A DNA stretch of 64,000 bases from assembly GCA_016195025.1 (NCBI GenBank), contig JACQAL010000002.1:6477-70476 (forward strand), written 5' to 3'. A model generated the notes under the pieces. The model saw only the letters and a program-made list of their open reading frames with translations, was not told the origin of the DNA and ran no database searches. This DNA is from Bacteroidota bacterium (lineage in GTDB: Bacteria > Bacteroidota > Bacteroidia > Palsa-948). The stretch's first letter is position 1. The number at the start of each line of letters is the position of its first letter. Shown one piece after another: positions 13,909 to 59,003 of this stretch. The position numbers and the translations under genes are program-made.

Positions 13909-14887
13909 AAAAGAGTTTCTTCTAAAATCTTCTCTTGCAATGGGAGCTATAGGATTGGTAACCCCGTCCCTAAAGGGAGAAGAAAAAAAATTATCGGCTG
14001 TTTCACCCTTTAGGGCTGGGGCTTCATTTCCTCTTGTGATTGCCACCTGGAATAATCTTGGCGCAACCGAAGCCGCATGGAAATCAATTCAGCAAAACGG
14101 AACTGCACTTGATGGAGTGGAAGCAGGTGTGCGCGTTCCCGAAGCTGACCCGGAAAATGATTCTGTCGGTTTGGGTGGTTTGCCCGACCGTGACGGACAT
14201 GTTACGCTCGATGCCTGCATCATGGATAAAAATGGAAACGCGGGCTCGGTAACTTTTTTGGAAAATATTGTTCACCCAATTTCCGTAGCGAGAAAAGTAA
14301 TGGAGAAAACTCCGCACGTAATGCTGAGCGGTGAAGGAGCGTTTAAGTTTGCAATTGATAACGGATTTAAAAAAGAAAATCTTCTCACGGAAAAATCGAA
14401 GAAGGCATGGGAAGAATGGAAAAAAACTTCCAAGTACGAACCGATTGTGAATTATGAAAATCACGATACGATTGGAATGCTCGCGCTCGATAAAGAAAAT
14501 AATATTTCAGGCGCGTGCACAACGAGCGGGCTTTCTTATAAAATGCACGGCAGAGTAGGAGATTCACCTATTATTGGCGCGGGCATGTTTTGTGATAATG
14601 AAGTGGGCGGGGCTTGTGCAACTGGCGTGGGAGAATTTGTAATGAAGACGCTTGGCTCTTTTTTGGTTGTAGAACTTATGCGCCAGGGAAAAACTCCGCA
14701 GCAGGCATGCGAAGAAGCGATTAATCGAATCGTAAAAAAATACGATTATAAAAAATTTCAGGTTGGATATCTTGCAGTGAATAAAAACGGAGAGACGGGT
14801 TCTTATTCAATTCAAAAAGGATTTACGTATTCCCTCTTTCTGAATAATGAAAATAAAATTTTTGATTCGGATTATTTTATGCATTGA
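13901..14887 (+). CDS. N4-(beta-N-acetylglucosaminyl)-L-asparaginase / isoaspartyl peptidase (Ntn-hydrolase, asparaginase-2 family)
   Basis: 328 aa. The autoproteolytic 'HDTIGMLALD' Thr nucleophile is present, along with the conserved 'GRVGDSPIIGAG...GGACATGVGE'. The N-terminal region holds a 60 nt palindromic insert (see the repeat feature at 13962-14021). Confidence 0.8.
   Translation: MNRKEFLLKSSLAMGAIGLVTPSLKGEEKKLSAVSPFRAGASFPLVIATWNNLGATEAAWKSIQQNGTALDGVEAGVRVPEADPENDSVGLGGLPDRDGHVTLDACIMDKNGNAGSVTFLENIVHPISVARKVMEKTPHVMLSGEGAFKFAIDNGFKKENLLTEKSKKAWEEWKKTSKYEPIVNYENHDTIGMLALDKENNISGACTTSGLSYKMHGRVGDSPIIGAGMFCDNEVGGACATGVGEFVMKTLGSFLVVELMRQGKTPQQACEEAINRIVKKYDYKKFQVGYLAVNKNGETGSYSIQKGFTYSLFLNNENKIFDSDYFMH
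13962..14021 (+). repeat. 60 nt inverted-repeat (palindromic) element sitting in-frame inside the asparaginase ORF
   Basis: Arms 'CCCCGTCCCTAAAGGG' (13962-13977) and 'CCCTTTAGGGCTGGGG' (14006-14021) are reverse complements at 14 of 16 positions, with a 28 nt spacer. The element is 60 nt, which is 20 codons (TPSLKGEEKKLSAVSPFRAGA), and lies between the signal region and the conserved 'PLVIATWNN'. The same 16-mer recurs at 47326-47341. Confidence 0.6.
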
Positions 14888-16160
14888 TAGACACGCTTCC
14901 ATTATTCACCACCCCAACAATTTTTCCTTTCAGTTTTTTCCCTATGAACGGAGTGTTTTTGGATTTTGAACGAATATTTTTTTCTTCCAACTTCCATTCT
15001 TTGTTCGGAAGGAATAAAGTGAGATTTGCTTTTTCTCCCGCTTTTATTTTCGAAACAGGCAATCCGAAAATTTCTCTCGGGCGGACAGAAAATTTTTTCA
15101 CGAGTTCATTTAACTTGAGATTGCTGTATGTATTTGCAATTGCAAAAGCGGTTTGCACTCCAATCATTCCGAAAGCAGCATAATCAAACTCCACATTTTT
15201 ATTTTCCACATCTTCGGGCGAGTGGTCGGAAGTGATTGCATCAATGGTCCCGTCAGTCAAACCTTTTTTCAGCGAGGCAATATCTTCTTTCGTTCTGAGC
15301 GGAGGATTCACTTTATAGTTTGTGTCAAAATCTTTCAGTAATAAATCATCGAGCGCGAGGTTATATGCATTCACCGATGCGGTTACTTTTAATTTTTTCT
15401 TTTTCGCTTCACGAATCAATTGTACCGAACCTGCTGTGGAAATGGAAGAGAAATGAATTCTTCCGCTCGTATATTCGCAGAGAAAAAGATTTCGCGCCAC
15501 CATCACTTCTTCGGCAAGCGCGGGAATTCCTTTCAGCCCGAGCGAAGTAGAAATTTTTCCTTCGTTCATTTGTCCGTTGAGAGAAATAGTTTTTTCATCG
15601 CAGTGCGTGAGTAAAAGTCCGTTGAAATTTTTTGCGTAGAGAAGCGCGCGCAGCAAAAGTCCGGAATCACTTACAGGTTTTTTATCATCTGAAAAAGCAA
15701 CCGCACCCGCGCTATGCATATCAAACATTTCGGATAGTTCTTTTCCATCGGTGTTTTGCGTGATTGCTCCAACAGGAAAAACATCTATAATATTTCCTGC
15801 TATTTTTCTTTTCACATATTCTATTTGCGATTTATTATCTATGGGCGGATGAGTGCCGGGCATCACTGCAACTCCCGTAAATCCGCCAGCACTTGCCGAA
15901 GCACAGCCGCTCAGTAAATCTTCCTTGTATTCATGTCCCGGGTCGCGGAAGTTCACCTGCATATCAAAAAATCCCGGAGAGATATGCAAGCCATCTGCTT
16001 CTATAATTTGTGTATTGGAACTTGAAACCTGTAACTTGTAACCTGAAACCTCTTTGATGATTCCGTTCTCAATAAAAATGCTGATTGTCTTGTTGTGATG
16101 AGGAGAGTTGGGGTCAACTACTTTCGCGGACTTTATGAGCAACTGCATTTCAAGTGGCAA
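14877..16160 (-). CDS. pyrC: Dihydroorotase-like cyclic amidohydrolase
   Basis: 427 aa. It has an amidohydrolase fold: 'ADGLHISPGFFDMQVNFRDPG', then 'LLTHCDE...', then 'AITSDHSPEDVENKNVEFDYAAFGMIG', which is DHxP-type metal binding. The length is typical of Bacteroidota PyrC. Confidence 0.7.
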   Translation of the reverse strand: MPLEMQLLIKSAKVVDPNSPHHNKTISIFIENGIIKEVSGYKLQVSSSNTQIIEADGLHISPGFFDMQVNFRDPGHEYKEDLLSGCASASAGGFTGVAVMPGTHPPIDNKSQIEYVKRKIAGNIIDVFPVGAITQNTDGKELSEMFDMHSAGAVAFSDDKKPVSDSGLLLRALLYAKNFNGLLLTHCDEKTISLNGQMNEGKISTSLGLKGIPALAEEVMVARNLFLCEYTSGRIHFSSISTAGSVQLIREAKKKKLKVTASVNAYNLALDDLLLKDFDTNYKVNPPLRTKEDIASLKKGLTDGTIDAITSDHSPEDVENKNVEFDYAAFGMIGVQTAFAIANTYSNLKLNELVKKFSVRPREIFGLPVSKIKAGEKANLTLFLPNKEWKLEEKNIRSKSKNTPFIGKKLKGKIVGVVNNGSVSINA

Positions 16161-16169
16161 AGATAAAAT

Positions 16170-18224
16170 TTATTTCCATAATCGGAGAAGAGCGGTTTCC
16201 ATAGCAAGAAACAGCAAAACAAAAAGAATGCACCACTTCCATAATTTTTTTCCTTGACCAATATCTGCAAGAACTTTGGTGATGTCTTTATTGCCCGCAT
16301 CAATGAGTGAAAAGTTTTTCAGGTTTGATTTTTCATAGAGAGAAATAAGTTCTTCGGGCATATACCGGCTCAGGTCAGATTCTTTTCTGTCATAGTTGAA
16401 AGAGATACCGGAAATTTTTTCTGCTCTGGCATAGAGTTCATAATTGCCTGCGTTTTTTATTTGGTCGTGTACAAAAATTGTGGGCTGCAAATCAACCATT
16501 CTGCTTTCAGGAATTACTTCAAAACCTGTGGTGAGCGGAGCCGAACCATCTCCTTTAATCTTGAAAACATTTTCCCCTGTTAATTTCGTTTTAACATCAA
16601 TCGAATTATCTTTTCCGATTGTGTAAAATAAATCTGATGATGGCTGGCTGTTCATCGCAATCTTATACATCAGCGGAACAAATATGGCATGCTTGGAAAG
16701 ATTGCTCCATTCAGAATTAAGCGGGACTGCGCTCAGATAAATTTTTCCTTTCTTGAAATTATATTTGGAAAAAAAAGGATTTCCATTTTTCATTTTCATC
16801 AGCACTTCTTCATTGGTTTTGCTTGAGTGTGATTGGATATAATGATTATGCACGACAGGCAAATCCAAATTCTCTCCTTTCTTTTCGAACACATCTGCAA
16901 AAATTTCGCTTTCGAAATTTGCCCAGTCAACTTTTGTGCCTGCTGTATCTTTTTTCAAATAAAAATTTGTCCCGAGAGAAGATAGAAATGCTTTGTAAGA
17001 ACTTGTATCGGTTTCCGCGGAAGGAAACACAATTAAACTTCCCCCATTCTGCGCGAAGCGCGTTAACTCCTGCGCAAGCCCGGAAGAAATTGATTTGAGT
17101 TCGCTGAGAATAATTACTTGTTGTGAAGGCAGTGAAGAGTAATCAATTTTATTTTCATCCTGAACAGTTAAAATAAATAATGAATCCTTTCCGAATAAAG
17201 TTTCAATTGGTTTAGAAGATTCCTTTCCAATATTCATTACGAAAATATTTTTTGCCACATCAAACGAGAAATAAAACTTGTCATCATACGTAACCGGATA
17301 ATCGGTGATTTCAATTCTTCCCTGCTGTATGCCCGGCTCTTTGATGACAAAAGAAAGTGGAATGTCTTTGCTTTCATTGGGCGCAATAGAAAAAGAGGAA
17401 GGAGTTTTCTGCTGGTTATTCAAAAAAAGTTTTACGGGAATATTTTCCAGATTATTTTCTGAAAGATTTTTTACCCGAATAAATAATTTTTCCGGTTGAT
17501 TCAATTGATGAACGGGCGATTCAAACCAGCACGAATCAATATATAAATTACTTTGCTGGTTGGCGGGAACGGGCAGAAGAATGGCTTTGATGCCCGTATC
17601 TGCTTTCACTTTCTCAAAATCTGAAATTGATTTCTGGAAGTCAGAAACAATAAATAACTTTTTGTTTTTCGTTTCTGATTTACTGAGCACATCGTTTTGC
17701 CTTGCACTTATTTCAGAAATCGTTCTCACCGCAGGAGAAATTTTCACTTCATCGAGTAGGATGAGAAATTCTTCGCGACTTACTAAGCGTTGGTGTTTTC
17801 CTTCGAAATCATTGGTGAGCAATTGAAATAAATCTGTTTGAGAATGAGCGAGCGCAATTTCACGCGCCATTTTTTTCGCTTCATCGAGCAGCATTCCGTT
17901 CTTGCTCACGTTTTCCATGCTGAAAGAATTATCTACATAAATGCTCACTGCCTGCGTTCCAACGATTGCATTTTTTTTATCGGAAGGAATAAATGGCTGC
18001 GCAAAAGCAAAAACTAAAAATGAAATTGCAAGAATCCGCGAGAGTAAAATCAAAAGATGTTTGATTCGATTTCTGTTCTGAGTTTGCTGTTTTACTTCTT
18101 TGAGAAAACGTATGTCAGGGAAATAAACTTTTTTGAATCTGCGGAAATTTAAAAGATGAATAATTATCGGAATAGAAATTGCGGACAACGCAAAAAGAAA
18201 ATATGGATAAACAAAACTCATCAA
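16170..18224 (-). CDS. BatA-like membrane protein with an N-terminal double-transmembrane anchor and a vWA-like (MIDAS) domain
   Basis: 'MMSFVYPYFLFALSAISIPIIIHLLNFRRFKKVYFPDIRFL...' matches the BatA-type double-TM N-terminal domain. 'IYVDNSFSM' is a DxSxS MIDAS motif. There is a C-terminal TM segment. Confidence 0.6.
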   Translation of the reverse strand: MMSFVYPYFLFALSAISIPIIIHLLNFRRFKKVYFPDIRFLKEVKQQTQNRNRIKHLLILLSRILAISFLVFAFAQPFIPSDKKNAIVGTQAVSIYVDNSFSMENVSKNGMLLDEAKKMAREIALAHSQTDLFQLLTNDFEGKHQRLVSREEFLILLDEVKISPAVRTISEISARQNDVLSKSETKNKKLFIVSDFQKSISDFEKVKADTGIKAILLPVPANQQSNLYIDSCWFESPVHQLNQPEKLFIRVKNLSENNLENIPVKLFLNNQQKTPSSFSIAPNESKDIPLSFVIKEPGIQQGRIEITDYPVTYDDKFYFSFDVAKNIFVMNIGKESSKPIETLFGKDSLFILTVQDENKIDYSSLPSQQVIILSELKSISSGLAQELTRFAQNGGSLIVFPSAETDTSSYKAFLSSLGTNFYLKKDTAGTKVDWANFESEIFADVFEKKGENLDLPVVHNHYIQSHSSKTNEEVLMKMKNGNPFFSKYNFKKGKIYLSAVPLNSEWSNLSKHAIFVPLMYKIAMNSQPSSDLFYTIGKDNSIDVKTKLTGENVFKIKGDGSAPLTTGFEVIPESRMVDLQPTIFVHDQIKNAGNYELYARAEKISGISFNYDRKESDLSRYMPEELISLYEKSNLKNFSLIDAGNKDITKVLADIGQGKKLWKWCILFVLLFLAMETALLRLWK

Positions 18225-18288
18225 AAGCGAATTTATACTAACATACGAATAAGAATTTATTTTTCAAATGCAAAAATCCGGAAAGAAA

Positions 18289-20820: not shown

Positions 20821-21015
20821 ATAGGAAATTTGATTCGCTAAAATACAAAAATGCAGGATGCAGAAAGATTGATTGGGATTCAGACGGGTAGAGAATTTTC
20901 TAACGGTTGCTCTGCGCTCTGTGCGTCTCTACGGGAAATCTTTAACATTTTTTAACGAAACCATTTCCCTCTTATCGTTGTTATACTCTTTGAAAAACAT
21001 TCTAACTTTACTCCA

Positions 21016-21690
21016 ATGAAATCAAAAATTTTTAATGCATTGATGACTGTTCTTTCTTTCTCATCATGCGCGCAAAATCAAAATAAAGAAGTACCAAAAA
21101 TGGAAACACAAAAAGCAGATACGGTTGTTAAACCTGAAACTTCAAAAACGAAACTTGAAACTGCCACATTCGGTGCCGGATGTTTCTGGTGCGTGGAAGC
21201 ACAATTTCAGATGCTCGATGGCGTGGTGAAAGTCGAGTCGGGATTTTCCGGAGGAAGCGTGAAGAATCCTTCCTATAAAGACGTTTGCACCGGAAGCACC
21301 GGTCACGCAGAAGTTTGCAATATCACTTACGACCCTTCAAAAATTTCTTACGAGGAAATGCTTTTTGCATTCTGGCAAACGCACGACCCGACTCAACTCA
21401 ACAGGCAGGGAAATGATGTAGGCACGCAATACCGCTCCGTAATTTTTTACCACAACGAAAAACAAAAACGACTTGCGGAAGAGTACAAGAAAAAACTGAA
21501 CGATGAAAAAGTTTTTGACAAGCCGGTGGTAACAGAAATTTCTCCGTTCACTGCTTTTTACAAAGCAGAAGATTATCACCAGAATTATTTTAACCAGAAT
21601 GGAGAAGAACCCTATTGCCAGTTTGTGGTTCGACCGAAGGTGGAAAAATTTCAGAAAGTGTTTAAGAATAAATTGAAGAATCAGCAGTAA
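21016..21690 (+). CDS. msrA: Peptide methionine sulfoxide reductase A (lipoprotein form)
   Basis: 224 aa. It has a lipoprotein signal 'LSFSSCAQ', the catalytic 'ATFGAGCFWCVEAQF' (GCFWC), and conserved 'HDPTQLNRQGNDVGTQYRSVIFY'. Confidence 0.9.
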   Translation: MKSKIFNALMTVLSFSSCAQNQNKEVPKMETQKADTVVKPETSKTKLETATFGAGCFWCVEAQFQMLDGVVKVESGFSGGSVKNPSYKDVCTGSTGHAEVCNITYDPSKISYEEMLFAFWQTHDPTQLNRQGNDVGTQYRSVIFYHNEKQKRLAEEYKKKLNDEKVFDKPVVTEISPFTAFYKAEDYHQNYFNQNGEEPYCQFVVRPKVEKFQKVFKNKLKNQQ

Positions 21691-21692
21691 AT

Positions 21693-21727
21693 AAAAAAGG
21701 GCTGCAATTGTTGCAACCCCTTTTCTT
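21693..21727. terminator. Bidirectional rho-independent terminator between convergent msrA and a T9SS cargo gene
   Basis: 'AAAAAAGGGctgcaattgttgcaaCCCCTTTTCTT': a GC stem flanked by an A-run and a T-run on either side. Confidence 0.6.
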
Positions 21728-21740
21728 AAGGATTTTTTTT

Positions 21741-22841: not shown

Positions 22842-22931
22842 GAAAAATAATTTAGTTGATGTTGAAGAATTATTAGAGGCGATGAAGATATACAAAAAAA
22901 TTCAAAATGTTTTTTTTCTAAGAAGAAATTC

Positions 22932-24092
22932 TCAACTGTTATAAACAACTTTGATTTTCTCTCTCAAATTATATTGCGAAGCCATCACTTCTCCGTATGC
23001 GCCTGTTGTTCGGATGGCAATTAAATCTCCCCGCTTAGTTTGAGGAAGGATTACGGCTTTGCCAAAACAATCCGAACTTTCGCAGATGGGACCGACAACA
23101 TCATAGCGGATGGTTGATGGTTGATGGTTGATGCTTGATGGAGAAGAAATATTTTCAATCTTGTGAAAGGATTGATAAAGTGCCGGGCGAATCAATTCCG
23201 TCATTCCTGCATCGAGGATTACAAAATTTGTATTCACACCTTTTTTTACATAGAGCACTTTTGAAATCAAACTTCCGCATTGCGCGACAATTGCTCTGCC
23301 GATTTCAAAATGCAAAGTTTGTTTCGGGCGTAGTTCAAGGAATTGTTTGAACAATCCAAAGTAAGAAGTAAAATCAGGAATGGAATTTTTATCCGGCTGG
23401 TGATAATCAACGCCAAGTCCGCCACCAACATTTATATGTTCCAAAGAAATTTTATGGCTTACAAACCAACTCTGAATTTCATTCGCGCGGAGGCAAAGCG
23501 ATTTGAATGCATTCAAATCTGTAATCTGCGAGCCAATATGAAAATGTATTCCGCAAATTTTTATGTTCTTCAATTGCTGCGTGCGTTTCACCACTTCTTC
23601 CAGTTCCCAGAGATTTATTCCGAATTTATTTTCTTCCAAACCTGTTGTAATGTACTTGTGCGTGTTCGCATTCACATTCGGATTAATGCGGAAAGCAATC
23701 GGAGCAATCTTATTTTTTTTCTTTGCTAATTCATTTATCACTTCAATCTCCTGTAAACTTTCGCAATTGAAACATGAAATATTTTTTTCAAGCGCAACAT
23801 TTATTTCTTCATCGTTTTTTCCAACTCCGGCAAAAAATAGTTGCGCAAACTTATATTCGCTTGCTTTTTTTACTTCATTACCGCTCACACAATCTGCTCC
23901 TAAACCGGATTTCTGAATCATAGAAAGTATTTCATCATTTGCATTTGCCTTCAGCGCATAGTGAACGTGATAGCCGTATTTCTCCGATTCTTTTTTCAAT
24001 GCCTCAATCGTTCGAGTCAGCAAATCCAAATCATAATAATAGAATGGAGTGGAGATTGAAGAGAACTTTTGTATTGTATTTTTTGAAAACAT
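22932..24092 (-). CDS. lysA: Diaminopimelate decarboxylase
   Basis: 386 aa. It carries the PLP-dependent Orn/DAP/Arg decarboxylase motif 'YALKANANDEILSMIQKSGLGADCVSGNEV' and lies downstream of lysC on the same strand. Confidence 0.85.
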   Translation of the reverse strand: MFSKNTIQKFSSISTPFYYYDLDLLTRTIEALKKESEKYGYHVHYALKANANDEILSMIQKSGLGADCVSGNEVKKASEYKFAQLFFAGVGKNDEEINVALEKNISCFNCESLQEIEVINELAKKKNKIAPIAFRINPNVNANTHKYITTGLEENKFGINLWELEEVVKRTQQLKNIKICGIHFHIGSQITDLNAFKSLCLRANEIQSWFVSHKISLEHINVGGGLGVDYHQPDKNSIPDFTSYFGLFKQFLELRPKQTLHFEIGRAIVAQCGSLISKVLYVKKGVNTNFVILDAGMTELIRPALYQSFHKIENISSPSSINHQPSTIRYDVVGPICESSDCFGKAVILPQTKRGDLIAIRTTGAYGEVMASQYNLREKIKVVYNS

Positions 24093-24167
24093 CTATTTCA
24101 AATTAAATGACTGAATGGTTAGATGATTGGATGGTTATTTAACCATATAGCCATTCAACCATATAAC

Positions 24168-25496: not shown

Positions 25497-25522
25497 ATAA
25501 GATTGCGAATATACAAACTCAA

Positions 25523-26911: not shown

Positions 26912-26959
26912 CAGCGAATGCGAATCTTTTACGAATGTACGAATAAGAAAACGAAACCT

Positions 26960-28336: not shown

Positions 28337-28384
28337 TAAGTCAAAAATCAAAAGTTAAAAGAGAAATACGATTACATTTGCGTT

Positions 28385-29566
28385 ATGCCGGTAGAAATAA
28401 AAGAAGTTAAAACGAAGAGTGACGCAAAGCAGTTTGTAAATCTTCCGTTTGAAATTTACAAAGGCAATGCCTTTTGGGTGCCGCCTTTGAAGGAAGGAGA
28501 AATGAAATCGCTTTTTCCCGAGACAAATCCCGCCTTTGATTTCTGCAAAGCAAAATTCTGGCTTGCGTTTAAGAATAAGAAATGCGTTGGAAGAATTGGC
28601 GCCATCATTAACGAAGCGTACAATAAAAAAACCGGAGAGAAGTTCGCGCGCTTTTCACGGCTGGAATTCTTTGATGACGAACCCCCCCCCCACTCCCCGA
28701 AGGGGGGAACACGGGAGAGTGGATTTCCTGATTTCCCCCTTCGGGGGACAGAGGGGGCTTTGCTTTCCACTGCCGAAAACTGGGCGAAAGAGAATAATTG
28801 CATAGGAATTCACGGGCCGCTTGGCTTTGCCAACCTCGATACTCAGGGTTTGCTGGTGGAAGGTTTTGAGCATTTGCAGGCGGTGGGTTCGGTTTATCAT
28901 CACGATTATTATCACAAGCACTTGGAAAAACTGGGCTATGAAAAAGAAATTGACTGGGTGGAGTTTCGTTTAACGCTGGGGCAGCAGGCGGTGGAAAAAG
29001 CAAACCGCGGTGCCGCGCTCATTCAGAAAAGATACGGCATTGAAGTTCTTCATTTCAAAAAGATGGACGAACTTCTTCCGCATTCCGACACTATTTTTAA
29101 AATACTGAACGATGCTTTCAGCGAACTTCCGTATGTAACGGAGTTTTCTGAAAGGATGATGGAGTTCTACAAAGAAAAATATATCAAACTTCTCAATCCC
29201 GAATTTGTGAAGATGGTAAAACTAAAAGGCGAGTTGGTTGGTTTTGTAATCGGGCTTCCTTCTTTATCCCATGCGCTGCAAAAAGCAAAGGGAAAACTTT
29301 TTCCTTTGGGGTTTCTTCACCTTTTAAAAGCGCGCAAGGGCGGAGAAGTGGTGGAGCAGTTGCTTACCGGAGTGAAAAAAGAAGTGATGTCAACCGGTGC
29401 GGGAGTTATTCTGATGGCTGAACTGCAAAAAGAAATGCTGAAGAAGGGAATGAAATATATTGAGACCACAGGCATTTTTGAAACCAACCAGAATGCAATT
29501 TCCAACTGGAAAAACTACGAGCATATTCAGCATAAAAGAAAGCGGATTTACCGCAAGATGTTTTAG
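28385..29566 (+). CDS. Acyl-CoA N-acyltransferase (GNAT-fold)-like protein of unknown specificity, carrying an in-frame GC-rich insert
   Basis: 393 aa, matching a Bacteroidota family of roughly 370 aa hypothetical GNAT-like proteins. Residues about 98-125 ('DDEPPPHSPKGGTRESGFPDFPLRGTEGA') are encoded by a GC-rich palindromic element. Confidence 0.45.
   Translation: MPVEIKEVKTKSDAKQFVNLPFEIYKGNAFWVPPLKEGEMKSLFPETNPAFDFCKAKFWLAFKNKKCVGRIGAIINEAYNKKTGEKFARFSRLEFFDDEPPPHSPKGGTRESGFPDFPLRGTEGALLSTAENWAKENNCIGIHGPLGFANLDTQGLLVEGFEHLQAVGSVYHHDYYHKHLEKLGYEKEIDWVEFRLTLGQQAVEKANRGAALIQKRYGIEVLHFKKMDELLPHSDTIFKILNDAFSELPYVTEFSERMMEFYKEKYIKLLNPEFVKMVKLKGELVGFVIGLPSLSHALQKAKGKLFPLGFLHLLKARKGGEVVEQLLTGVKKEVMSTGAGVILMAELQKEMLKKGMKYIETTGIFETNQNAISNWKNYEHIQHKRKRIYRKMF
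28682..28758 (+). repeat. GC-rich double-hairpin element sitting in-frame inside the GNAT-like ORF; includes a C10 homopolymer
   Basis: A C x 10 run at 28682-28691 is followed by 'CCCCgaaGGGGGG' (28695-28707) and 'CCCCCttcGGGGG' (28735-28747). The local GC is far above the roughly 40% background. It translates without stops. Confidence 0.6.
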
Positions 29567-33021: not shown

Positions 33022-33927
33022 TCACGACACCACCGCCCAGGCAGGCATGGAAAAAGCCCCCAGTTCGCCACGCGAGTTTTTCACGCGCGCAATGTACCAG
33101 GCGCATTTGCCAAGAGAGGTATTGTCTAAAACGCTTCTGAACAAGCCGCGGCTCGCATCGCCCGAATACTGGTAATCTGCCTGCGCGGGAATGGTTTGCG
33201 GGTTTAGTGTGAGCGCTATGTACACCTGAATTTCTTTCACTCCTTTTTCCTTGCCGCGTTTTTTATGCTCCACGCTGGTTACCAAAAGCACATGCAGCAA
33301 ATGTTTTATTTCGCGTATGGCAATGCTCACTTCTTTTCTGCCGGGCGCGGCAGTGCGTGTGAGGGTGGTATCCTGCAAAAGCGTTCCTTTCTTAATGCGG
33401 AAGGTTTCGCAGTCGCTCACCGTGCCGTTGAGGGCAATTTTATCGAGCAGGTGATGCCCCGTGTTTTTATCGTGGTCATACCTGAGCGTGTTCTTAATCA
33501 GAATAAGCAGTTGGTCTTTAATGTCGGTGTTCCGGTGCCGCTTGTCGGCATACTGCGCGTAAAGCGTATCGCTCTGGCTGCGGAAGGTATGCCAGTCAGT
33601 GCTTTCCTGCCCCGTCCAGCCCCAGTTCTGGAAGCGGTTGTTTTGCAGTTGATAGTTATCGGTGTTCACCATATAAGCGGCAAACTCCGAGGGTTTGTTG
33701 GGGATGCGTGTGGTGCAGGCAATGAATGGCTCACGGACGGCAATGAGTGATTTTTGGCAGGCAATGAGCGGCTCACGGACGGCAATGAACGATTTTCGGC
33801 AGGCAATGAGCGGCTCACCGCCTGCCATAAATGCCTTGCGGTTAAGAGAACCGCGTTTTTTGAATGATTTTGCTACCTTGCGGAGTGCCTCAGCCAATGC
33901 GCGAAGCAGAGCCGAAAGGAGGCGCAA
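33022..33927 (-). CDS. Hypothetical protein in a GC-rich island. The likely true start is the internal Met at 33672 (MVNTDNYQ..., 216 aa). Upstream, the ORF translation is made of tandem nucleotide repeats.
   Basis: The minus-strand ORF is 301 aa. The first roughly 85 aa (Ala/Leu/Arg-rich, 'EPLIACRKSFIAVREPLIACQKSLIAVREPFIAC') are the translation of the 42 bp repeats, so a start at 33672 is more plausible. No family was recognised. GC content is visibly about 50% against about 40% for the flanks. Confidence 0.35.
   Translation of the reverse strand: MRLLSALLRALAEALRKVAKSFKKRGSLNRKAFMAGGEPLIACRKSFIAVREPLIACQKSLIAVREPFIACTTRIPNKPSEFAAYMVNTDNYQLQNNRFQNWGWTGQESTDWHTFRSQSDTLYAQYADKRHRNTDIKDQLLILIKNTLRYDHDKNTGHHLLDKIALNGTVSDCETFRIKKGTLLQDTTLTRTAAPGRKEVSIAIREIKHLLHVLLVTSVEHKKRGKEKGVKEIQVYIALTLNPQTIPAQADYQYSGDASRGLFRSVLDNTSLGKCAWYIARVKNSRGELGAFSMPAWAVVS
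33715..33828. repeat. Tandem direct repeats of about 42 bp, roughly 2.7 copies
   Basis: 'GCAGGCAATGAATGGCTCACGGACGGCAATGAGTGATTTTTG', then 'GCAGGCAATGAGCGGCTCACGGACGGCAATGAACGATTTTCG', then a partial 'GCAGGCAATGAGCGGCTCACCGCCTGCCAT'. Each unit contains a 21 nt sub-repeat 'GGCAATGAnnGnnTnnnGgnn'. Confidence 0.8.
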
Positions 33928-33986: not shown

Positions 33987-34049
33987 GCTGGTCGCTGGTC
34001 GCTGGTCGCTGGTCGCTGGTCGCTGGTCGCTGGTCGCTGGTCGCTGGTC
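33987..34049. repeat. Perfect heptanucleotide microsatellite (GCTGGTC) x 9
   Basis: 63 nt of uninterrupted 'gctggtc' units, about 60 nt upstream of the 33927 ORF start, in the gap between two T9SS protease genes. Confidence 0.9.
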
Positions 34050-37135: not shown

Positions 37136-37230
37136 AGTGAAAATAGTTAGTTTGGTTTTAAAAGGGATGTAAAGGTAGAAATCTCCTAATCAAAACCAAA
37201 ATTTAGGTAAACTTTTTTTTACACTTAGAA

Positions 37231-37280
37231 CTCACCCCTAACCCCTCTCTTTCTGAAAGAGAGGGGAATTTAAGGGGAGA
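37231..37280. repeat. Intergenic GC-rich palindromic hairpin element, in a terminator position for the 37282-37731 gene
   Basis: 'CCCCTCTCTttctgaaAGAGAGGGG' has a 9 bp stem (37242-37266). It is flanked by 'cacccctaa...ttaaggggag'. The 'CTCTCCCC/GGGGAGAG' stem is shared with the holA insert. Confidence 0.55.
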
Positions 37281-37281
37281 G

Positions 37282-37731
37282 TTATTTGTACTCAGGAAAA
37301 TCTTTTAGAAATAAATGCTTTCCCTGTTCATAGTTCATTTCGCAGCAATAATGTTTCAAGCCGTTTGTTACCGCCAAAAATTTTGTTCTGAGTTTATTCG
37401 ATATATTGTAAACGGCAACCTGATTAAAAGTTTCCTGAGAAATTTTTACATCGGGTTTTTTGCATTCCACAATCATCCACACATTTCCTTTCCGGTTGTG
37501 AATTTTTATGTCGCTTCGCTTTTGAAGTTTGTTGTACTTCAATCCTGTTTCAACGGCAATAAGCGAAGCAGGATATTTTTTTTCTTCAATTAAATACTGA
37601 ATAAAATTCTGGCGCACCCATTCTTCGGGTGTGAGAGCGACAAACTTTTTGCGAATCGCATCAAAGATTTGATTTCCTTTTTCACCTTGTCGAATTCGAA
37701 AAGAATATTCGGGAAGATTTAATTTTAACAT
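37282..37731 (-). CDS. Stand-alone protein resembling the type I restriction enzyme HsdR N-terminal domain
   Basis: 149 aa. 'EEWVRQNFIQYLIEEKKYPASLIAVETGLKYNKLQKRSDIKIHNRKGNVWMIVECKKP' fits the HSDR_N fold pattern (E...R.DI...P...IE.K), which is common as a solo roughly 150 aa protein in Bacteroidota. Confidence 0.6.
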   Translation of the reverse strand: MLKLNLPEYSFRIRQGEKGNQIFDAIRKKFVALTPEEWVRQNFIQYLIEEKKYPASLIAVETGLKYNKLQKRSDIKIHNRKGNVWMIVECKKPDVKISQETFNQVAVYNISNKLRTKFLAVTNGLKHYCCEMNYEQGKHLFLKDFPEYK

Positions 37732-37829: not shown

Positions 37830-38927
37830 ATGGATTTTGACAAAATAATATCCGACCTCAAGAACAAAGTTTACCATCCCGTTTATTTTTTAATGGGCGA
37901 GGAGCCGTTCTTTATTGATGAAGTTTCAAATTACATAGAGAAAAATATTCTGGATGATTCCGAAAAAGAATTCAACCAGACAGTTTTATACGGAGGCGAG
38001 ACAAACATTCTGCAGGTCATCGGCGAAGCCAAGAGTTATCCCATGATGAGCAATTACCGCGTGGTGATTATCAAGGAAGCGCAGAACATGAAAGACCTTG
38101 TGCCGAAGGAAAAATCAGACCCCTCTCCATCTCTCCCCAAAGGGGAGAGGGTTGAGCGCGCAAACTCCTCCCCTTCGGGGAGGTCGGGTGGGGTTGTTCA
38201 TCCGCTAGAAAATTATCTCGACAATCCCCAAAAGACAACCATTCTTGTTTTCTGCCATAAGTACAAAACCATTGACATGCGCACAGGGTTCGCAAAAAAT
38301 CTTTCCAAGCGCGCAGTGGTTTTGAAATCGGATACGCTTTACGATTACAAAGTGCCGAAGTGGATTGAAGAATTTATAGCGGATAAAAAATATTCCATTG
38401 AGCCGCGTGCGAGCCAACTGCTCACGGAATTTCTTGGAAATGATTTGAGCAAGATTGCCAACGAACTTGAAAAACTTTTCTTAAACATTCCTGAGAAAAG
38501 CAAAATTACTTCCGACCACATTCAAAAATACATCGGCATCAGCAAGGAGTACAACAATTTTGAATTGCAGGATGCCATTGGGAAAAAAGATTCGCTGAAA
38601 GCAAACCGCATCATCAATTATTTTTCTGCCAATACAAAGGATAATCCCATGGTGGTAACGGTTGCTTCGCTGGCAGGGTATTTCAGCAAGATGCTGCTGT
38701 ATCATATGGTAAAAGGAAAACCGCAGAATGAAATTGCAGCAACTCTCAAAGTGCCTCCGTTTTTTGTGAAGGATTATGCATCGGCTTCAAATAATTATCC
38801 TCCCGGAAAAATTTTCAGCGCCATTTCTCTCCTCCGCGAATACGATATGAAATCAAAGGGCTATGAAAATTCAAACATAGATGAAGGAGAACTGATGAAA
38901 GAAATGGTGTATAAAATAATGCATTGA
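37830..38927 (+). CDS. holA: DNA polymerase III delta subunit, carrying an in-frame GC-rich insert
   Basis: 365 aa. 'VYHPVYFLMGEEPFFIDEVSNYIEKNIL...VLYGGETNILQVIGEAKSYPMMSNYRVVIIKEAQNMKD' is the delta-subunit N-terminal clamp-loader fold. Residues about 95-125 ('SDPSPSLPKGERVERANSSPSGRSGGVVHP') are the inserted element. Confidence 0.8.
   Translation: MDFDKIISDLKNKVYHPVYFLMGEEPFFIDEVSNYIEKNILDDSEKEFNQTVLYGGETNILQVIGEAKSYPMMSNYRVVIIKEAQNMKDLVPKEKSDPSPSLPKGERVERANSSPSGRSGGVVHPLENYLDNPQKTTILVFCHKYKTIDMRTGFAKNLSKRAVVLKSDTLYDYKVPKWIEEFIADKKYSIEPRASQLLTEFLGNDLSKIANELEKLFLNIPEKSKITSDHIQKYIGISKEYNNFELQDAIGKKDSLKANRIINYFSANTKDNPMVVTVASLAGYFSKMLLYHMVKGKPQNEIAATLKVPPFFVKDYASASNNYPPGKIFSAISLLREYDMKSKGYENSNIDEGELMKEMVYKIMH
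38120..38183 (+). repeat. GC-rich double-hairpin element sitting in-frame inside holA
   Basis: 'CTCTCCCCaaaGGGGAGAG' (38131-38149) and 'CCTCCCCttcGGGGAGG' (38167-38183), with 'cccctctcc' also at 38120-38128. There is no stop codon. Confidence 0.6.
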
Positions 38928-39194
38928 AAATTTTTTATTCGAAAAAATTATACGCTTTTTCCAGATACTTTGTTTTCAGCGCAGCAATGCGGTTGCTGCC
39001 GAAAATACTTGACGGACTCGCAAAAATTCCCTGCAGAAGCGGAAAAACCCCGCACGGAATTGCTGAATAAACAGACGGGATGCCTGAATGAACGCGCGGG
39101 ACTTCAAAAAGAAGTTCAAGTTATTGATGAATCCCGCACCTGCATTTAAAATGAACACGCGGGAGGGCAGAAAAAATTTGCGTTATGTATGCGG

Positions 39195-39340
39195 AAACAT
39201 TCCCTTATGCAGCAGGAAGTTTTAGTAGTTGCACAGCAAGTTTTAGTTGAGCGCGCCAAACATTGCCTTATGCAGCAGGAAGTTTTAGCAGTTATACAGC
39301 AAGTTTTATTTCAACCTGCCGAACATTGCTTGCTGCGCGC
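39195..39340. repeat. Tandem direct repeat of about 63 nt (about 2.5 copies) with an internal periodicity of about 21 nt, inside a 530 bp intergenic region
   Basis: Unit 1 is 'AAACATTCCCTTATGCAGCAGGAAGTTTTAGTAGTTGCACAGCAAGTTTTAGTTGAGCGCGCC'. Unit 2 is 'AAACATTGCCTTATGCAGCAGGAAGTTTTAGCAGTTATACAGCAAGTTTTATTTCAACCTGCCG'. Unit 3 is partial. The sub-motif 'GCAGCA(G)GAAGTTTTAG' recurs four times. Confidence 0.8.
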
Positions 39341-39456
39341 CAAAGGAAAATTTTTTTCTGAAAATGTCAACTTCAGGCAAAAGGGTGCTTCGCCCTTCGG
39401 AATAATTTTTCTTTCGCTATTCCCATATCTCAATTATTTTTGCAGAAAAAAACAGG

Positions 39457-39858
39457 ATGAATTATTTCCTCGTCAAATCCGAACCCGAAACGTATTCATG
39501 GGAACAATTTGCCAAAGACGGCAAAACCATGTGGGAAGGCGTGCGCAACTTTGCCGCGAGAAAAAATTTACGCTCTATGAAAAAAGATGATTTGGTTTTG
39601 TTCTATCACAGCGGAGAAGATAAATGCGTGAAAGGAATTGCAAAAGTTACCAGAGAATTTTACCAAGACCCCACCACAAAAGAAGATTGGTCGGTGGTTG
39701 ACCTTGCTTCTGAAAAACCGCTGAAGAAACCCGTTACGCTGGCGCAAATAAAAGCAGAAAAAAAATTGCAGAACATTTATCTGGTGAGACAAGGAAGATT
39801 ATCCGTTATGCCGCTTGGCAAAGAAGAGTTTGAACTTATCGTTCGCATGGGAAGTTGA
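39457..39858 (+). CDS. EVE-domain (PUA-like) protein
   Basis: 133 aa. 'MNYFLVKSEPETYSWEQFAKDGKTMWEGVRNFAARKNLRSMKKDDLVLFYHSGEDKCVKGIAKVTREFYQDP' is the canonical EVE/DUF55 signature. Confidence 0.85.
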   Translation: MNYFLVKSEPETYSWEQFAKDGKTMWEGVRNFAARKNLRSMKKDDLVLFYHSGEDKCVKGIAKVTREFYQDPTTKEDWSVVDLASEKPLKKPVTLAQIKAEKKLQNIYLVRQGRLSVMPLGKEEFELIVRMGS

Positions 39859-45710: not shown

Positions 45711-45858
45711 TTTCCTTCTTTTCAGTACGAAAGAAAAAAAATATTTACTCCCGTAAAAACTTGTATATCTTCGCCAAAATTAAGATTAAGGATTAAGGAA
45801 TTACGATGTAGGATTTTTAAATTCCAAATCCTTAATCTAAAATCCTAAATTTATTTTT

Positions 45859-47337
45859 ATGTCGCTATTCAGAACAAAATCTCACGAACATTTATTGAAC
45901 GAAGCAGCGGAATCGGATAAAGGACTGAAACGTTCACTCACAGCACCAAGTTTGGTTGCACTTGGAATCGGAGCTATCATTGGTGCCGGGCTTTTTGTTC
46001 GCACTGCAGCAGCAGCAGGCGAGCATGCAGGCAATGGAGTTATCATGTCGTTTGTGATTGCCGCAGTGGGCTGCGCGTTCGCAGGACTTTGCTATGCAGA
46101 ATTTGCTTCTATGATTCCGATTGCGGGAAGCGCGTACACTTACGCTTACACAACCATGGGAGAATTGATTGCATGGATTATCGGCTGGGCGCTCATTCTT
46201 GAATATGCATTGGGCGCTGCAACCGTTTCCATTGCATGGAGCGAATACCTCAATAATCTTGTCGGAGGTTCAATTCCTTTTTCGTTATGTCATTCACCGT
46301 TTGAAGTTTCAGCAGCAGGCGAGCATGGCTTGGTAAATCTTCCCGCGCTTTTTATTTTGCTTTTGCTTTCTCTCATTCTCATTCGGGGAACGCAGGAATC
46401 GGCAATGGTGAATGCGGTGATTGTATTTGTAAAAGTTGCCATCGTTCTTATGTTTATTGGCATCGGCTGGAAATTTTTGAATCCGAGCAATCACACTCCA
46501 TTTTTAATTCCCGATAATGCTCCTCCGGTTGATATGGGAAACGGAAAAATGTATGATTACTCTCCCACGTTCAATCACGGGTGGATGGGAGTTCTTCGCG
46601 GAGCGGCAATTGTATTCTTTGCTTTCATCGGGTTCGATGCGGTTTCCACGGCAGCGCAGGAAGCAAAAAATCCCAAGCGCGATATGCCGATTGGAATTCT
46701 TGGTTCATTGGTGGTCTGTACTATATTATATATTCTTTTCTCCTGGGTATTAACAGGAGTTGCGCCTTACACCGATTTTGTAAAAGCCGGAAAAGAAGCA
46801 TCGGTCGCTTACGCCATTCAGCATTACATGGCAGGATATAACTGGCTGGCAACTTTTGTTACGGTTGCCATCCTCGCAGGATTTTCTTCTGTAATACTTG
46901 TAATGCTGCTCGGTCAGTCGCGTGTGTTTTATTCCATGTCGCGCGATGGATTGCTTCCAAAAACTTTTTCTGACATTCATCCGAAGTTCCGCACTCCTTG
47001 GAAATCAAATTTAATTTTGTTTGTCTTCGTAGGAATTTTCGGAGGATTTATTCCCGGAAGTGTTGCCGGTGATTTAACTTCCATCGGAACTTTATTTGCG
47101 TTTGTGCTCGTATGTATTGGCATTTGGATTATGCGCGTGAAAAATCCAACTATTCCCCGCCCGTTCAAAGCTCCTGTTGTTCCCATTACTGCAACGCTTG
47201 GCGTTATTGTATGTGGAGCAATGATTGTTTCACTCGATAAAATAACCCAACTCAGCGCTTTTGGCTGGATGATTGTCGGGCTCATAATTTATTTTGGTTA
47301 CAGCCGCACGCGAAGCAAACTGCACCCCCAGCCCTAA
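45859..47337 (+). CDS. APC-superfamily amino acid permease (cationic amino acid transporter-like)
   Basis: 492 aa with 12 TM segments. The N-terminus 'LKRSLTAPSLVALGIGAIIGAGLFV' is the APC consensus. The stop codon lies inside a copy of the 16-mer CCCCAGCCCTAAAGGG (47326-47341). Confidence 0.85.
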   Translation: MSLFRTKSHEHLLNEAAESDKGLKRSLTAPSLVALGIGAIIGAGLFVRTAAAAGEHAGNGVIMSFVIAAVGCAFAGLCYAEFASMIPIAGSAYTYAYTTMGELIAWIIGWALILEYALGAATVSIAWSEYLNNLVGGSIPFSLCHSPFEVSAAGEHGLVNLPALFILLLLSLILIRGTQESAMVNAVIVFVKVAIVLMFIGIGWKFLNPSNHTPFLIPDNAPPVDMGNGKMYDYSPTFNHGWMGVLRGAAIVFFAFIGFDAVSTAAQEAKNPKRDMPIGILGSLVVCTILYILFSWVLTGVAPYTDFVKAGKEASVAYAIQHYMAGYNWLATFVTVAILAGFSSVILVMLLGQSRVFYSMSRDGLLPKTFSDIHPKFRTPWKSNLILFVFVGIFGGFIPGSVAGDLTSIGTLFAFVLVCIGIWIMRVKNPTIPRPFKAPVVPITATLGVIVCGAMIVSLDKITQLSAFGWMIVGLIIYFGYSRTRSKLHPQP

Positions 47338-47481
47338 AGGGAAAAATCCCAAATGACAAATTCCAAAACACAAATAAATTCCAAACACAAAATTTCAAAT
47401 TCAAATAATTTGGAATTTTTGATTTAGATAATTGGTATTTGTTTGTTATCTGGTATTTGTGTTTTGGTGCTTAATGATTAA

Positions 47482-50234: not shown

Positions 50235-50324
50235 CGAATGGCTGCGAAATTTCGAATTAATACAAAACAATAATTCGTAATTTCGTTATGTTTCGTTATC
50301 CGCATTAAAAATAAATTTTCAAGT

Positions 50325-51494: not shown

Positions 51495-51511
51495 AATGTT
51501 GTAACCGAAAA

Positions 51512-53848: not shown

Positions 53849-53860
53849 AACATTCTTTTT

Positions 53861-56503: not shown

Positions 56504-57024
56504 GGTATTTGGCTTTACGAAGTTAATTTATGTGAGTGTGTTGAACAGAACATCTTTTTTGTTTAATGACAGGTCTGAGTTTTTCTATACAAGTTATCCT
56601 GGAATTCTAATTTTTATGCCGCTCAATGCCGGAATGCTGAAGTGCGGTGCAAAAATATAAAATAAAAACCACACATTGAGAGGATTTCCAAGGGTATTTA
56701 TGCACACTTTTTAAGAATCTTTGATTGCTGTTTTATACAAGACGCAATAGCGGAAAAAAGGTTGCCTTTGTGGAGAACTAATATTTTATACCAAAACAAC
56801 TCAGGTTTCAGGAATGTTCAGGAAGAATGGAATGATGGAAGATTGTCCCGAAGGGACTTCTTCGGAGGAAGATTGGCTGTTTCCCAACATTCCATTATTC
56901 CAACCTTCCAAATAATTTTCGGAAACCTGACTCTGCCTTCGGTATAGATTATGGTTTATGCTATGGTGGTTTTTTGCAGTTTTCACACTTATTTTCATAC
57001 TTTCTTCATGGAAATGCTCAGTAG

Positions 57025-57129
57025 GAGCACTCCTCCGGAGCGCAGGAGCACTCCTCCGCTCGTGAGGAACACTCCTCCGCTCGTGAGGAACACTCCTCCG
57101 CTCGTGAGGAACACTCCTCCGCTCGTGAG
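57025..57129. repeat. Tandem 21 bp repeat x 5 in the 680 bp gap upstream of the SprB-repeat genes
   Basis: Copy 1 is 'GAGCACTCCTCCGGAGCGCAG' (diverged). Copy 2 is 'GAGCACTCCTCCGCTCGTGAG'. Copies 3 to 5 are 'GAACACTCCTCCGCTCGTGAG', then 'GACACGCC'. Confidence 0.85.
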
Positions 57130-57185
57130 GACACGCCAAATCGTTTGAGAATTCTTCTCAAACGGAGTAAGAGGTATTTCAGGAG

Positions 57186-59003
57186 TTAATTTTCAAGCAT
57201 TAATTGCCGGATGTATTTCACCGGAGCGCTGCCATAACTGAGAAACTTCTCATTGAACTCTTTCAGGTTGAATTTCTCTCCAAGTTTTTTCTTCATCTCT
57301 TCCCTTAGTTCATAAATTTCGGTGAAGCCGGTGAAGTAAGAATCCAACTGAACTTGCGTGAGGGAAACCCGCTTCCATTTATTTTCGGCTTCCTGTTTTT
57401 GCTGGAAAGCATCTTCCACCAGAAATTTGATTGCATCTTCTTTGCTCATTCCGCGAACATGCACGCTGTAATCCAAAATGGTGTTGCATACAGAGCGCAA
57501 ATGCCATTTATAATACATCAGCCACATTTCAAGTGAATCGGGTCCTGCGCCAAAACCGTTTTCAAGCATGAGGCGTTCTGAATAAACCGCCCATCCTTCA
57601 ATCATTGCTCCGTTGCCGAATAAACTTTTCACCCTACTGGGCGATTGATTGCTGTAAATCAATTGCGCGTAATGCCCCGGAATGGCTTCGTGAATGGAAA
57701 GTATTTGCAGGATGTAATGATTGTATTCACGCAGATAACTTTCGGCTTCTTCTTTTGAATAATGAGCCAGCGAACCAACGTTGTAATAAGAATTTCCCTC
57801 TTTGTCATACGGACCGGGTGAAGACATGGAAGCGCCCGCAACTCCTGCCATGTAAGCAGGTTCTTTACGAACCACCAATGGTTTTGCAGGATCCATGTAT
57901 AATAGATTTTTGTCGCTCACGAATTTTGTAAGCATGGGAATTTGTTTTTCTATTTCGGTTTGAAAATCTCCGGGCTTCACATGCTTTTTAGAAATTTCGT
58001 CTATGAGCATTTTAACTTCCGATTTTGTGAAACCACTCAGTCGGATATTGGGAAAATAGTTGTGAAAAATCTTTTTAGTAATGCCCAGCATTTCTTTTTG
58101 AATCTCGTCCTTGCGCTGAACGGCTTTATTGTAAATTTCTTCGGCAGTAAAATGCGATTGGATATCGTACATAAATTTCTTCTCGTATAAATCTTTTCCT
58201 ATTCTGAAAGAACGCGCTTCAAATCCCCCTGCTTCGCTTTCCCCCTTTGAAAAGGGGGACTTAGGGGGATTCAACTTCGAGCGCAAATCTTTCAGCCAGG
58301 AAACATAATCGTCAATGACTTTCACAAAATATTTAATCTGCATTTCGATTATCTGAATTTCGTGTTCATCCATTTTGCATTTCGCCAGCGAATCCATCAT
58401 CATTCCCGTAAAAACTTCTTCTCCTCCTTTGTTTTGCTGAATCGCCAAATCGGTATGTTCAATGGTTGGATTCTTAATCATCTTTTTCGCATTTTCATAA
58501 TATGCTTTAATAGGTTTCATGCGCTGAGAAAGCGCGCGGAGTTTTTCTTCGTTCGGTTCATTTTTATTCTGAAGAATATCTGCAAAGGTTGAACTCACAT
58601 TATACGAAGCAGGATTCCATTCATATTCACGGAATTCATTTACATTAAAAATAATTCCGTTCAGCATGTTATCGAGAATGTGAAAATCTGTTTTGTTGGA
58701 AGAAGAAAGTTTTGTGATGTCCATTTTTTTCAGCGCTTCCAGCTTTTCATTTGCAAAAGCAATTTCTTTTTGATGAAACGCCTCATCGGTCACAACGAGA
58801 ACACTGTCATATTTATGATATCCTTGTGATGAAGCCCATCCGGGGTAAAGTTTCCATAAATCCTCTATGAAGTTGGCACTGAATTTTGAAAAAGAAGAAT
58901 CTGCATCTGGCGGGTTGATGAGTTGCCGGGTTGCAGAGGGGTTATTTTCACAGGAGAAAAATAGCAAGCCCGTGATGAAGAACAGAAAAATTATTTTTTT
59001 CAT
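57186..59003 (-). CDS. DUF885-family lipoprotein (putative HExxxGH metallopeptidase-like), carrying an in-frame GC-rich insert
   Basis: 605 aa with a lipoprotein signal 'LLFFSCENN'. It carries the 'SIHEAIPGHYAQ' motif characteristic of DUF885. The inserted element encodes 'KLNPPKSPFSKGESEAGGFE'. Confidence 0.65.
   Translation of the reverse strand: MKKIIFLFFITGLLFFSCENNPSATRQLINPPDADSSFSKFSANFIEDLWKLYPGWASSQGYHKYDSVLVVTDEAFHQKEIAFANEKLEALKKMDITKLSSSNKTDFHILDNMLNGIIFNVNEFREYEWNPASYNVSSTFADILQNKNEPNEEKLRALSQRMKPIKAYYENAKKMIKNPTIEHTDLAIQQNKGGEEVFTGMMMDSLAKCKMDEHEIQIIEMQIKYFVKVIDDYVSWLKDLRSKLNPPKSPFSKGESEAGGFEARSFRIGKDLYEKKFMYDIQSHFTAEEIYNKAVQRKDEIQKEMLGITKKIFHNYFPNIRLSGFTKSEVKMLIDEISKKHVKPGDFQTEIEKQIPMLTKFVSDKNLLYMDPAKPLVVRKEPAYMAGVAGASMSSPGPYDKEGNSYYNVGSLAHYSKEEAESYLREYNHYILQILSIHEAIPGHYAQLIYSNQSPSRVKSLFGNGAMIEGWAVYSERLMLENGFGAGPDSLEMWLMYYKWHLRSVCNTILDYSVHVRGMSKEDAIKFLVEDAFQQKQEAENKWKRVSLTQVQLDSYFTGFTEIYELREEMKKKLGEKFNLKEFNEKFLSYGSAPVKYIRQLMLEN
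58222..58271. repeat. Nested GC-rich palindromic element sitting in-frame inside the DUF885 ORF
   Basis: The outer arms are 'AATCCCCCT' (58222-58230) and 'AGGGGGATT' (58263-58271). The inner hairpin is 'CCCCCTTTgaAAAGGGGG' (58241-58258). Confidence 0.6.

Follow-up and report, generated by a model that had tools for sequence, protein, structure and literature searches.

A family of short GC-rich hairpin repeats, probably mobile, within and between the genes of an uncultured Bacteroidota lineage

Palindromic repeats that lie in frame within protein-coding genes are documented best in Rickettsia, as Rickettsia palindromic elements (RPEs), and as scattered intragenic repetitive extragenic palindromes (REPs) in a few bacteria (PMC10969869, PMC3733652). 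RPEs are ~100-150 bp elements of these obligate intracellular Alphaproteobacteria (Ogata et al. 2000, as summarized in PMC10969869 and PMC3733652), and the same summaries describe their inserts as thought to be compatible with protein fold and function. Intragenic REPs, mostly dimers coding for 20-30 amino acids (aa), have been described in Opitutus terrae, R. conorii and others, and some of the units supply stop codons (Di Nocera et al. 2013, PMC3733652). In a REP doublet forming a hairpin (REPIN), two inverted short palindromic units and a spacer make one long hairpin (Bertels & Rainey 2011, PMC3116915, PMC3337134). MITEs, or miniature inverted-repeat transposable elements, lie between genes in ~90% of cases (PMC11602168), and Coxiella QMITE1, ERIC and the Anabaena MITEs make in-frame fusions (review PMC10969869). 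Here we describe a family of GC-rich hairpin repeats in a 64,000-nucleotide (nt) stretch of DNA (the window; ~42% GC) from an uncultured groundwater Bacteroidota lineage, where copies occupy both open reading frames (ORFs) and intergenic DNA. We regard these repeats, with a probability of about 0.8, as a lineage-specific family of short, non-autonomous, mobile hairpin elements that are tolerated in protein loops and linkers and resemble REPs or REPINs, MITEs and RPEs. Literature searches returned no description of this family in Bacteroidota.

Copies were counted in the window and in flanking loci from relatives (L-numbered loci, P-numbered proteins); the top match to the window in a species-representative genome collection was 73%. 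The elements are 35-105 nt long overall and are built from a ~30-nt palindrome, in which an outer C-run and an inner pyrimidine/purine stem enclose a loop of 3-4 nt. Stem arms on the 5' side consist purely of pyrimidines and those on the 3' side purely of purines. Single-unit copies measure 35-55 nt. More commonly, two units are joined in inverted orientation as a doublet of ~81 nt, AGCCCCC-TCTAAC-TCCCCCGAAGGGGGA-spacer-CCCCCCTTCGGGGGG-GGGGGCT, whose hairpin 1 (TCCCCCGAAGGGGGA) and hairpin 2 (CCCCCCTTCGGGGGG) are mutual reverse complements within an outer stem GCCCCC/GGGGGC (alignment A2). Inspection of the flanks of 16 copies revealed ends of the form AG/CCCC...GGGG/CT preceded by A-rich sequence on the 5' side; the inverted arms span ~30 nt and are imperfect.

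One ~81-nt sequence, together with its AGCCCC/GGGGCT ends and its spacer, which is not palindromic, recurs in unrelated genes and in intergenic DNA. R1, a covariance model trained on six copies of the element, identified untrained copies in the aspartokinase ORF of L166 (66 bits), in holA of L083 and L003 and in a PFOR-like ORF of L003, as well as an intergenic copy (L083 5866-5975) whose contig also bears an in-ORF copy from its own subfamily. The L003 copy was left out of the DNA alignment, since MAFFT misaligned with it included. The insert DNA at a second GNAT site (site B) of P0144, P0146 and P0160 matches the insert at site A of the window. In relatives, in-ORF copies were also found in a second loop of holA and in the Orn/DAP decarboxylase gene, where an extra 39-nt GC-rich segment of L166 (795-845; ..CCCCTCCTTCAGAGGAG..), missing from the window ortholog at 22932-24092, is probably a further small copy with the peptide SRNSPLKEGQGG. 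A 29-nt degenerate pattern derived from the left unit matched exactly in contigs of separate metagenomes. Three IMG/VR contigs classed as viral carry single units in an ORF reading APSNSPEGGE (L169 4717-4745, L170 2699-2727 and L171 13455-13613), and L171 has two copies 50 nt apart; these units could link phages or prophages to the uncultured host lineage. When R1 was run on a distant comparison set of 1.33 Mb of Bacteroidota loci, no score was better than E=0.42. These analyses revealed a family that is dispersed, confined to one clade and patchy among close relatives. The segments were not conserved in distant taxa and the palindromes were not unique, and close relatives, but not distant Bacteroidota, had more copies both in additional genes and between genes, in line with the family proposed in an initial annotation of the window.

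The hairpins were also skewed in polarity. Within the window the pattern C4+..N0-10..G4+ occurs six times and the reverse order, G..C, never, and eight hairpins have a pyrimidine 5' arm and a purine 3' arm compared with one of opposite polarity. Hairpins that combine a pure-pyrimidine 5' arm with a pure-purine 3' arm were tallied, alongside those of opposite polarity, in a census, and their density was 12.5 per 100 kb in the window (opposite polarity, 1), 14.3 per 100 kb in close relatives (opposite polarity, 0) and 0.45 per 100 kb in distant relatives (opposite polarity, 0), giving a polarity of 33:1. This census was used in place of a second model, as single-unit alignment A6 had two misaligned rows. 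Strict C4..G4 counts, which were almost nil in the six closest genome loci, had suggested that the element was unique to this metagenome-assembled genome (MAG); this idea was dropped because the pattern was too narrow, and fold scans and R1 detected the family in relatives where the strict count was near zero.

Folding was analyzed with z-scores taken against dinucleotide shuffles and with a separate 60-nt sliding fold across the whole window. The GNAT, holA and 37228 elements were the first, second and fourth most stable folds of the window, and the four in-ORF elements known from the initial annotation had z-scores from -2.8 to -4.5 (Table 1). The copies retain their hairpins through compensatory changes, with CG<->UA double changes in 9 of the 18 modelled pairs and paired cells at 92.6%, compared with 84% in shuffles and 61-81% for slid partners. 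The encoded peptide shifts from SPEGGE to SPKGGT by a 1-nt shift while the DNA hairpin is kept; since the peptide varies and the hairpin does not, constraint is taken to act on the nucleic acid.

Table 1. Copies of the hairpin repeat in the window, with their R1 scores and folding statistics.
Host gene or context	Position	Strand	Form	Encoded peptide or relation to gene	R1	Fold
PBP1C-like gene (ORF 11126-13510)	12086..12120	+	single hairpin TCTCCCTCTCCTGTGGGAGAGGGACGAGGTGAGAG	SPSPVGEGRGES		stable hairpin in sliding fold
Glycosylasparaginase gene (ORF 13901-14887)	13962..14021	+	doublet CCCCGTCCCTAAAGGG...CCCTTTAGGGCTGGGG	residues ~21-41		-27.9 kcal/mol, z -2.8
GNAT/YghO-like gene, site A (ORF 28385-29566)	28679..28761	+	81-nt doublet	EPPPHSPKGGTRESGFPDFPLRGTEGA	79 bits	-52 kcal/mol, z -4.5
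holA, DNA polymerase III delta subunit (ORF 37830-38927)	38117..38195	+	78-nt doublet	DPSPSLPKGERVERANSSPSGRSGGV	72 bits	z -4.3
DUF885 gene (ORF 57186-59003)	58221..58272	-	nested single element	PPKSPFSKGESEAGG	E=0.015	z -3.2/-3.6
Amino-acid permease gene, 3' end (ORF 45859-47337)	47321..47341	+	half (single-arm) copy CCCCCAGCCCTAAAGGG	unit TAA is the stop codon		z -0.16 (47318-47350)
Intergenic	4027..4077	+	two small hairpins	begins 2 nt past transketolase-like stop codon (ORF 3048-4025)	E=0.023	z -2.0 (4026-4075)
Intergenic	37228..37283	+	nested single element ACTCACCCCTAACCCCTCTCT..AGAGAGGGG..AGGGGAGAGT	adjoins HSDR_N_2 stop codon (ORF 37282-37731, minus)	E=0.14	z -4.5 (37228-37282)

The initial annotation had reported compact GC-rich palindromes with shared stem motifs in four ORFs (glycosylasparaginase, GNAT, holA and DUF885), each an interruption of a conserved protein family, and at three other positions. 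The sequences were present at all seven positions, and comparison with orthologs or PDB structures bore out the interruption for holA, GNAT and DUF885. The holA loop has ~28 residues in the window versus 4 in the B. subtilis delta subunit (PDB 3zh9); it is short and rich in K/E/D in distant relatives (120 homologs compared), and the sister ortholog by neighbour joining (P0002/L167, 81% identical) has an empty site. Most GNAT/YghO orthologs, including that of the sister genome, are 372 aa proteins free of the insert, with inserts known at at least three sites; site A is empty in sister locus L168 and also in L166 and L164. Neither PDB 3u24 nor any of 26 representatives, among them the 77%-identical fragment P0419, has the 14-aa insert of DUF885. 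The asparaginase copy did not fit this description. It lies in the N-terminal linker, outside the conserved domain, with a Tat-like signal peptide upstream and the mature enzyme downstream from residue ~43, the point from which the PDB enzyme aligns. Asparaginase orthologs at 74-87% identity have variable versions of the element or a different subfamily, and distant orthologs (311 aa) have a short linker free of it. A fifth in-ORF copy, overlooked earlier, was found in the PBP1C-like gene. Its segment NTSPSPVGE is a 9-residue gap when aligned to PBP4 (PDB 3zg7), and the peptide SPSPVGEGR recurs in holA orthologs P0009 and P0014; its status as an inserted element is partly inferred, the comparison being with PDB 3zg7.

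Comparison of collinear genomes revealed filled and empty versions of the same sites. The sister genome (GCA_964625875.1; loci L167 and L168) is collinear with the window, and its holA and GNAT sites are empty. L166 is collinear with window positions 22.9-29.6 kb, and the three largest GC-rich, strongly folding indels between the two are exactly these elements: L166 carries one in aspartokinase and one at GNAT site B, both empty sites in the window, and GNAT site A is filled in the window and empty in L166. Both GNAT sites are filled in P0146, with near-identical left arms. Close holA orthologs carry differing 'PSP..KGEG..GGV' inserts in the same loop and in a second loop, and the two loops occur in four distinct filled and empty combinations within one tight clade. 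The lineage specificity of the holA, GNAT and DUF885 inserts, which the initial annotation had proposed to check, was upheld by empty sites in the sister or in representatives, and that of the asparaginase element by distant orthologs. The resemblance of the central GNAT spacer to the empty-site sequence of the sister prompted a model of two separate hairpin insertions around host DNA; this was rejected as a general explanation because the site B spacers, of similar length and partly similar sequence, have no host residues to supply them.

All in-ORF copies seen keep the reading frame, as had been claimed for the first four, and have no stop codon in the host frame, although this sample is partly ascertained, since broken genes are not retrievable as full-length proteins. 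Coding copies had four to five of six frames open, with two to three for the asparaginase, DUF885 and L003 holA copies, and three intergenic copies had 0, 2 and 4 open frames. Stems made only of pyrimidines or only of purines exclude stop codons in any frame or orientation, and an open frame is therefore likely. AlphaFold models of two of the host proteins place the encoded Pro/Ser/Gly/Glu segments in predicted disordered, low-confidence loops between well-predicted elements. In the holA model (mean predicted local distance difference test score, pLDDT, 85), residues 96-105 and 109-120, between a strand and a helix, scored below 50; in the GNAT model (mean pLDDT 90), residues 100-120 scored ~53 and their flanks above 90. 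Translation across an insert would yield a peptide such as SPKGGTRESGFPDFPLR.

ORFs hold about half of the copies: 5-6 of the 8 window copies, and 5 of the 9 found in unselected flanking DNA from relatives. Two of the three positions given earlier as further copies, 4032-4068 and 37231-37280, are intergenic copies. The 4027-4077 copy folds more weakly than the in-ORF elements, and a hairpin downstream of holA in relative L084 (TCCCCCTTAATAAAGGGGGA) is near-identical to it. The 37228-37283 copy belongs to the same subfamily as in-ORF copies in the second holA loop of relatives L082, L083 and L086 (CTCACCCCCAACCCCTCTCC..GGAGAGGGG..GGGGAGAGG), and a nested single form, CTCACCCC..CCCCTCTCC-loop-GGAGAGGGG..GGGGAGAG, links it to the second-holA-loop copies of relatives. 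The third position, 47326-47341, proved to be a half copy at the 3' end of the permease gene, and the TAA within its unit is the stop codon of that gene. Over 16 nt it matches exactly the reverse complement of positions 14003-14018, in one arm of the asparaginase element, which confirms the shared stem motif. The half copy does not fold alone, and as a single 16-mer match is near chance in 64 kb, its putative membership of the family rests on motif context.

The behaviour of these elements matches RPEs and their anatomy matches REPINs; intragenic REP dimers and RPEs have already been described. As with RPEs, lineage-specific and patchy palindromic families occur both between genes and in frame within unrelated housekeeping genes, here with five to six in-ORF and two intergenic copies in the window and more in relatives. 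The likeness to RPEs drawn by the initial annotation is therefore supported, with the corrections given above. In contrast to RPEs, the elements are 35-105 nt long, have homopyrimidine/homopurine stems and probably their own sequence families, and occur in free-living uncultured Bacteroidota; given the differences in length and host phylum, we do not file them as RPEs and call them RPE-like in behaviour only. The doublets share with REPINs the arrangement of inverted units and spacer folding as one long hairpin, singlets occur too, and the flanking gene's stop codon can come from a unit. However, known REPs and REPINs are overwhelmingly extragenic, whereas ORFs hold about half or more of the copies here. 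The flanks of 16 copies had no conserved GTAG or CGTC tag beside the stems, and GACG was found only where host codons supply it and is present at the empty site too. A gene for a REP-associated tyrosine transposase (RAYT), which in known systems is usually flanked by REPs, was not found within the 64 kb. Like MITEs, the elements are small, non-autonomous and multi-copy, have terminal inverted repeats and lie in frame in genes, which MITEs do occasionally; they differ in being far more often intragenic, in lacking a target-site duplication and in that most copies are much shorter than typical MITEs.

Cyanobacterial small dispersed repeats and the GC clusters or double-hairpin elements of fungal mitochondria are also very short, GC-rich mobile palindromes in AT-richer genomes. 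They nest in one another and can sit inside genes, and other mechanisms have been proposed for the mitochondrial ones. A comparable nesting was seen in the GNAT site A copy of P0146 (L162 3695-3793), where a 21-nt palindrome, CTGCCTGCCGGACAGGCAGGC, is nested in the left arm of the doublet, although hosts and sequences differ. Such nesting suggests that two or more families of palindromic repeats insert into each other. At the same GNAT loop, P0123, P0125 and P0151 carry unrelated short inserts (GSPFDSAQGDKLTTG, GSTSPTMG and GSTPLTTG), which look like translations of another repeat family.

We infer that the elements are selfish and mobile. Under this model, copies would spread inside the genomes of one uncultured Bacteroidota lineage by cut- or copy-and-paste without target-site duplication. 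Those in coding DNA would persist where they fall in a surface loop or linker, have a net length divisible by three and leave an open frame, and the element would then be translated as a flexible loop rich in Pro/Ser/Gly/Glu/Lys. Enzymes of the IS200/IS605 type and RAYTs act on subterminal hairpins and leave no duplications. Because the hairpins here are subterminal and duplications are absent, a hairpin-recognising single-strand transposase of the RAYT or IS200/IS605 type is our leading guess for the mobiliser, albeit a doubtful one. A bolder version, which we hold tentatively and at well under even odds, is a REPIN-like family specialised for life inside genes, still active, exchanged with phages and steadily supplying proteins with new loops. 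In this version the stems would be stop-free in six frames, the commonest doublet would be 81 nt (27 codons), and a flexible, hydrophilic peptide would let the element insert cheaply, whichever way round, into surface loops of any kind.

Several observations weigh against a mobile family. Pfam scans of ~45 window ORFs detected no transposase, RAYT or Y1_Tnp, and the data cover a small part of any one genome. The flanks of 16 copies showed no target-site duplication, at a resolution limited by the 77-82% nt identity of the compared genomes; a GGAA repeat at GNAT site B, considered as a duplication, was not upheld in the other copies. In both comparisons with the sister, the element takes the place of ~18-19 nt of host loop and is not a pure addition. 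The net gain relative to the sister is for this reason only ~20 aa, which together with the 14-aa DUF885 insert revises the initial estimate of 20-30 added residues per element. The holA and asparaginase sites are hypervariable loops across the whole clade, and some shared inserts could have been inherited vertically from long ago and then decayed, instead of being inserted repeatedly. The alignment used for covariation had been fitted to the model, it holds both strands of the same loci, and translation of the inserts is assumed from their intact frames.

Three alternative explanations were considered, all of which we rank below a mobile element. The first, which we judge unlikely, is that the hairpins are kept by selection because the host uses them as RNA or DNA, for instance as terminators or attenuators, to stabilise mRNA, to pause translation or to bind proteins. 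Copies do lie directly past stop codons (4027-4077, 37228-37283 and, after holA, L084 5958), and REPs elsewhere are mostly downstream of coding regions and have been proposed as RNA elements (PMC3733652). However, the hairpins at 4027 and 37228 are not followed by a T-run, and an Rfam 15 scan of the window gave no match. The positions of in-ORF copies also differ among close relatives and the sister has no copies in the same genes, which argues against a conserved gene-specific role. The second is that these are ordinary hypervariable, low-complexity surface loops that have drifted and are GC-rich and palindromic by accident. The clade-wide variation of the holA loop and asparaginase linker in length and sequence, which includes K/E/D-rich versions free of hairpins, and the partial replacement of host loops fit this idea. 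It is largely refuted, and to us highly improbable, given that unrelated genes and intergenic DNA share the ~81-nt sequence with its spacer and ends, that the 29-nt pattern is exact in separate metagenomes, and that polarity is skewed and stems covary. The least probable is that the elements go untranslated, either because ribosomes bypass them, as in the GC-rich 'byp' insertions of Magnusiomyces mitochondrial genes and the gene 60 gap of phage T4, or because they are cut out of the mRNA; very stable hairpins (to -52 kcal/mol) within coding regions of a 42% GC genome would suit it, but the in-ORF copies are in frame and stop-free, partly by ascertainment, and bypass is therefore unnecessary.

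A mobile hairpin family of this kind would be a second dense case of in-frame palindromic repeats, and its presence in free-living environmental Bacteroidota shows that such repeats are not confined to intracellular genomes undergoing reduction. The exclusion of stop codons by homopyrimidine/homopurine stems offers a simple sequence rule for the survival of repeats in ORFs. Such inserts inflate and fragment protein alignments, and the 'PSP..KGEG/GGV' low-complexity segments in many MAG proteins stem from them. Presence or absence of a copy could serve as a strain marker, and shared units could help to tie phages to this uncultured host group.

The window also contains other repeats and gene arrangements. 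A 21-nt unit, AGGAACACTCCTCCGCTCGTG, is tandemly repeated at 57044-57131 (4.2 copies, 98% matches) in the intergenic region between the SprB/CHU_C and DUF885 genes, and ranks third in stability among the 60-nt folds. Nine heptamers, (GCTGGTC)x9, arrayed at 33987-34049 (100% identity) and a 42-nt tandem repeat at 33715-33818 (2.5 copies) flank the start of ORF 33022-33927, which has no Pfam match. The 3' side of holA has ~520 bp of extra intergenic DNA (38926-39456) that is absent in the collinear sister and holds a 63-nt direct repeat (39195-39329, 2.1 copies); ORF 39189-39590 has no Pfam match and is probably no gene, and the EVE-domain gene is 39457-39858. Type IX secretion cargo is abundant (Por_Secre_tail, CHU_C, SprB repeats and PorP/SprF). 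At 5401-13510, a bacterial alpha-2-macroglobulin gene (1886 aa) comes directly before the PBP1C-like gene, and the two genes are usually paired in this way.

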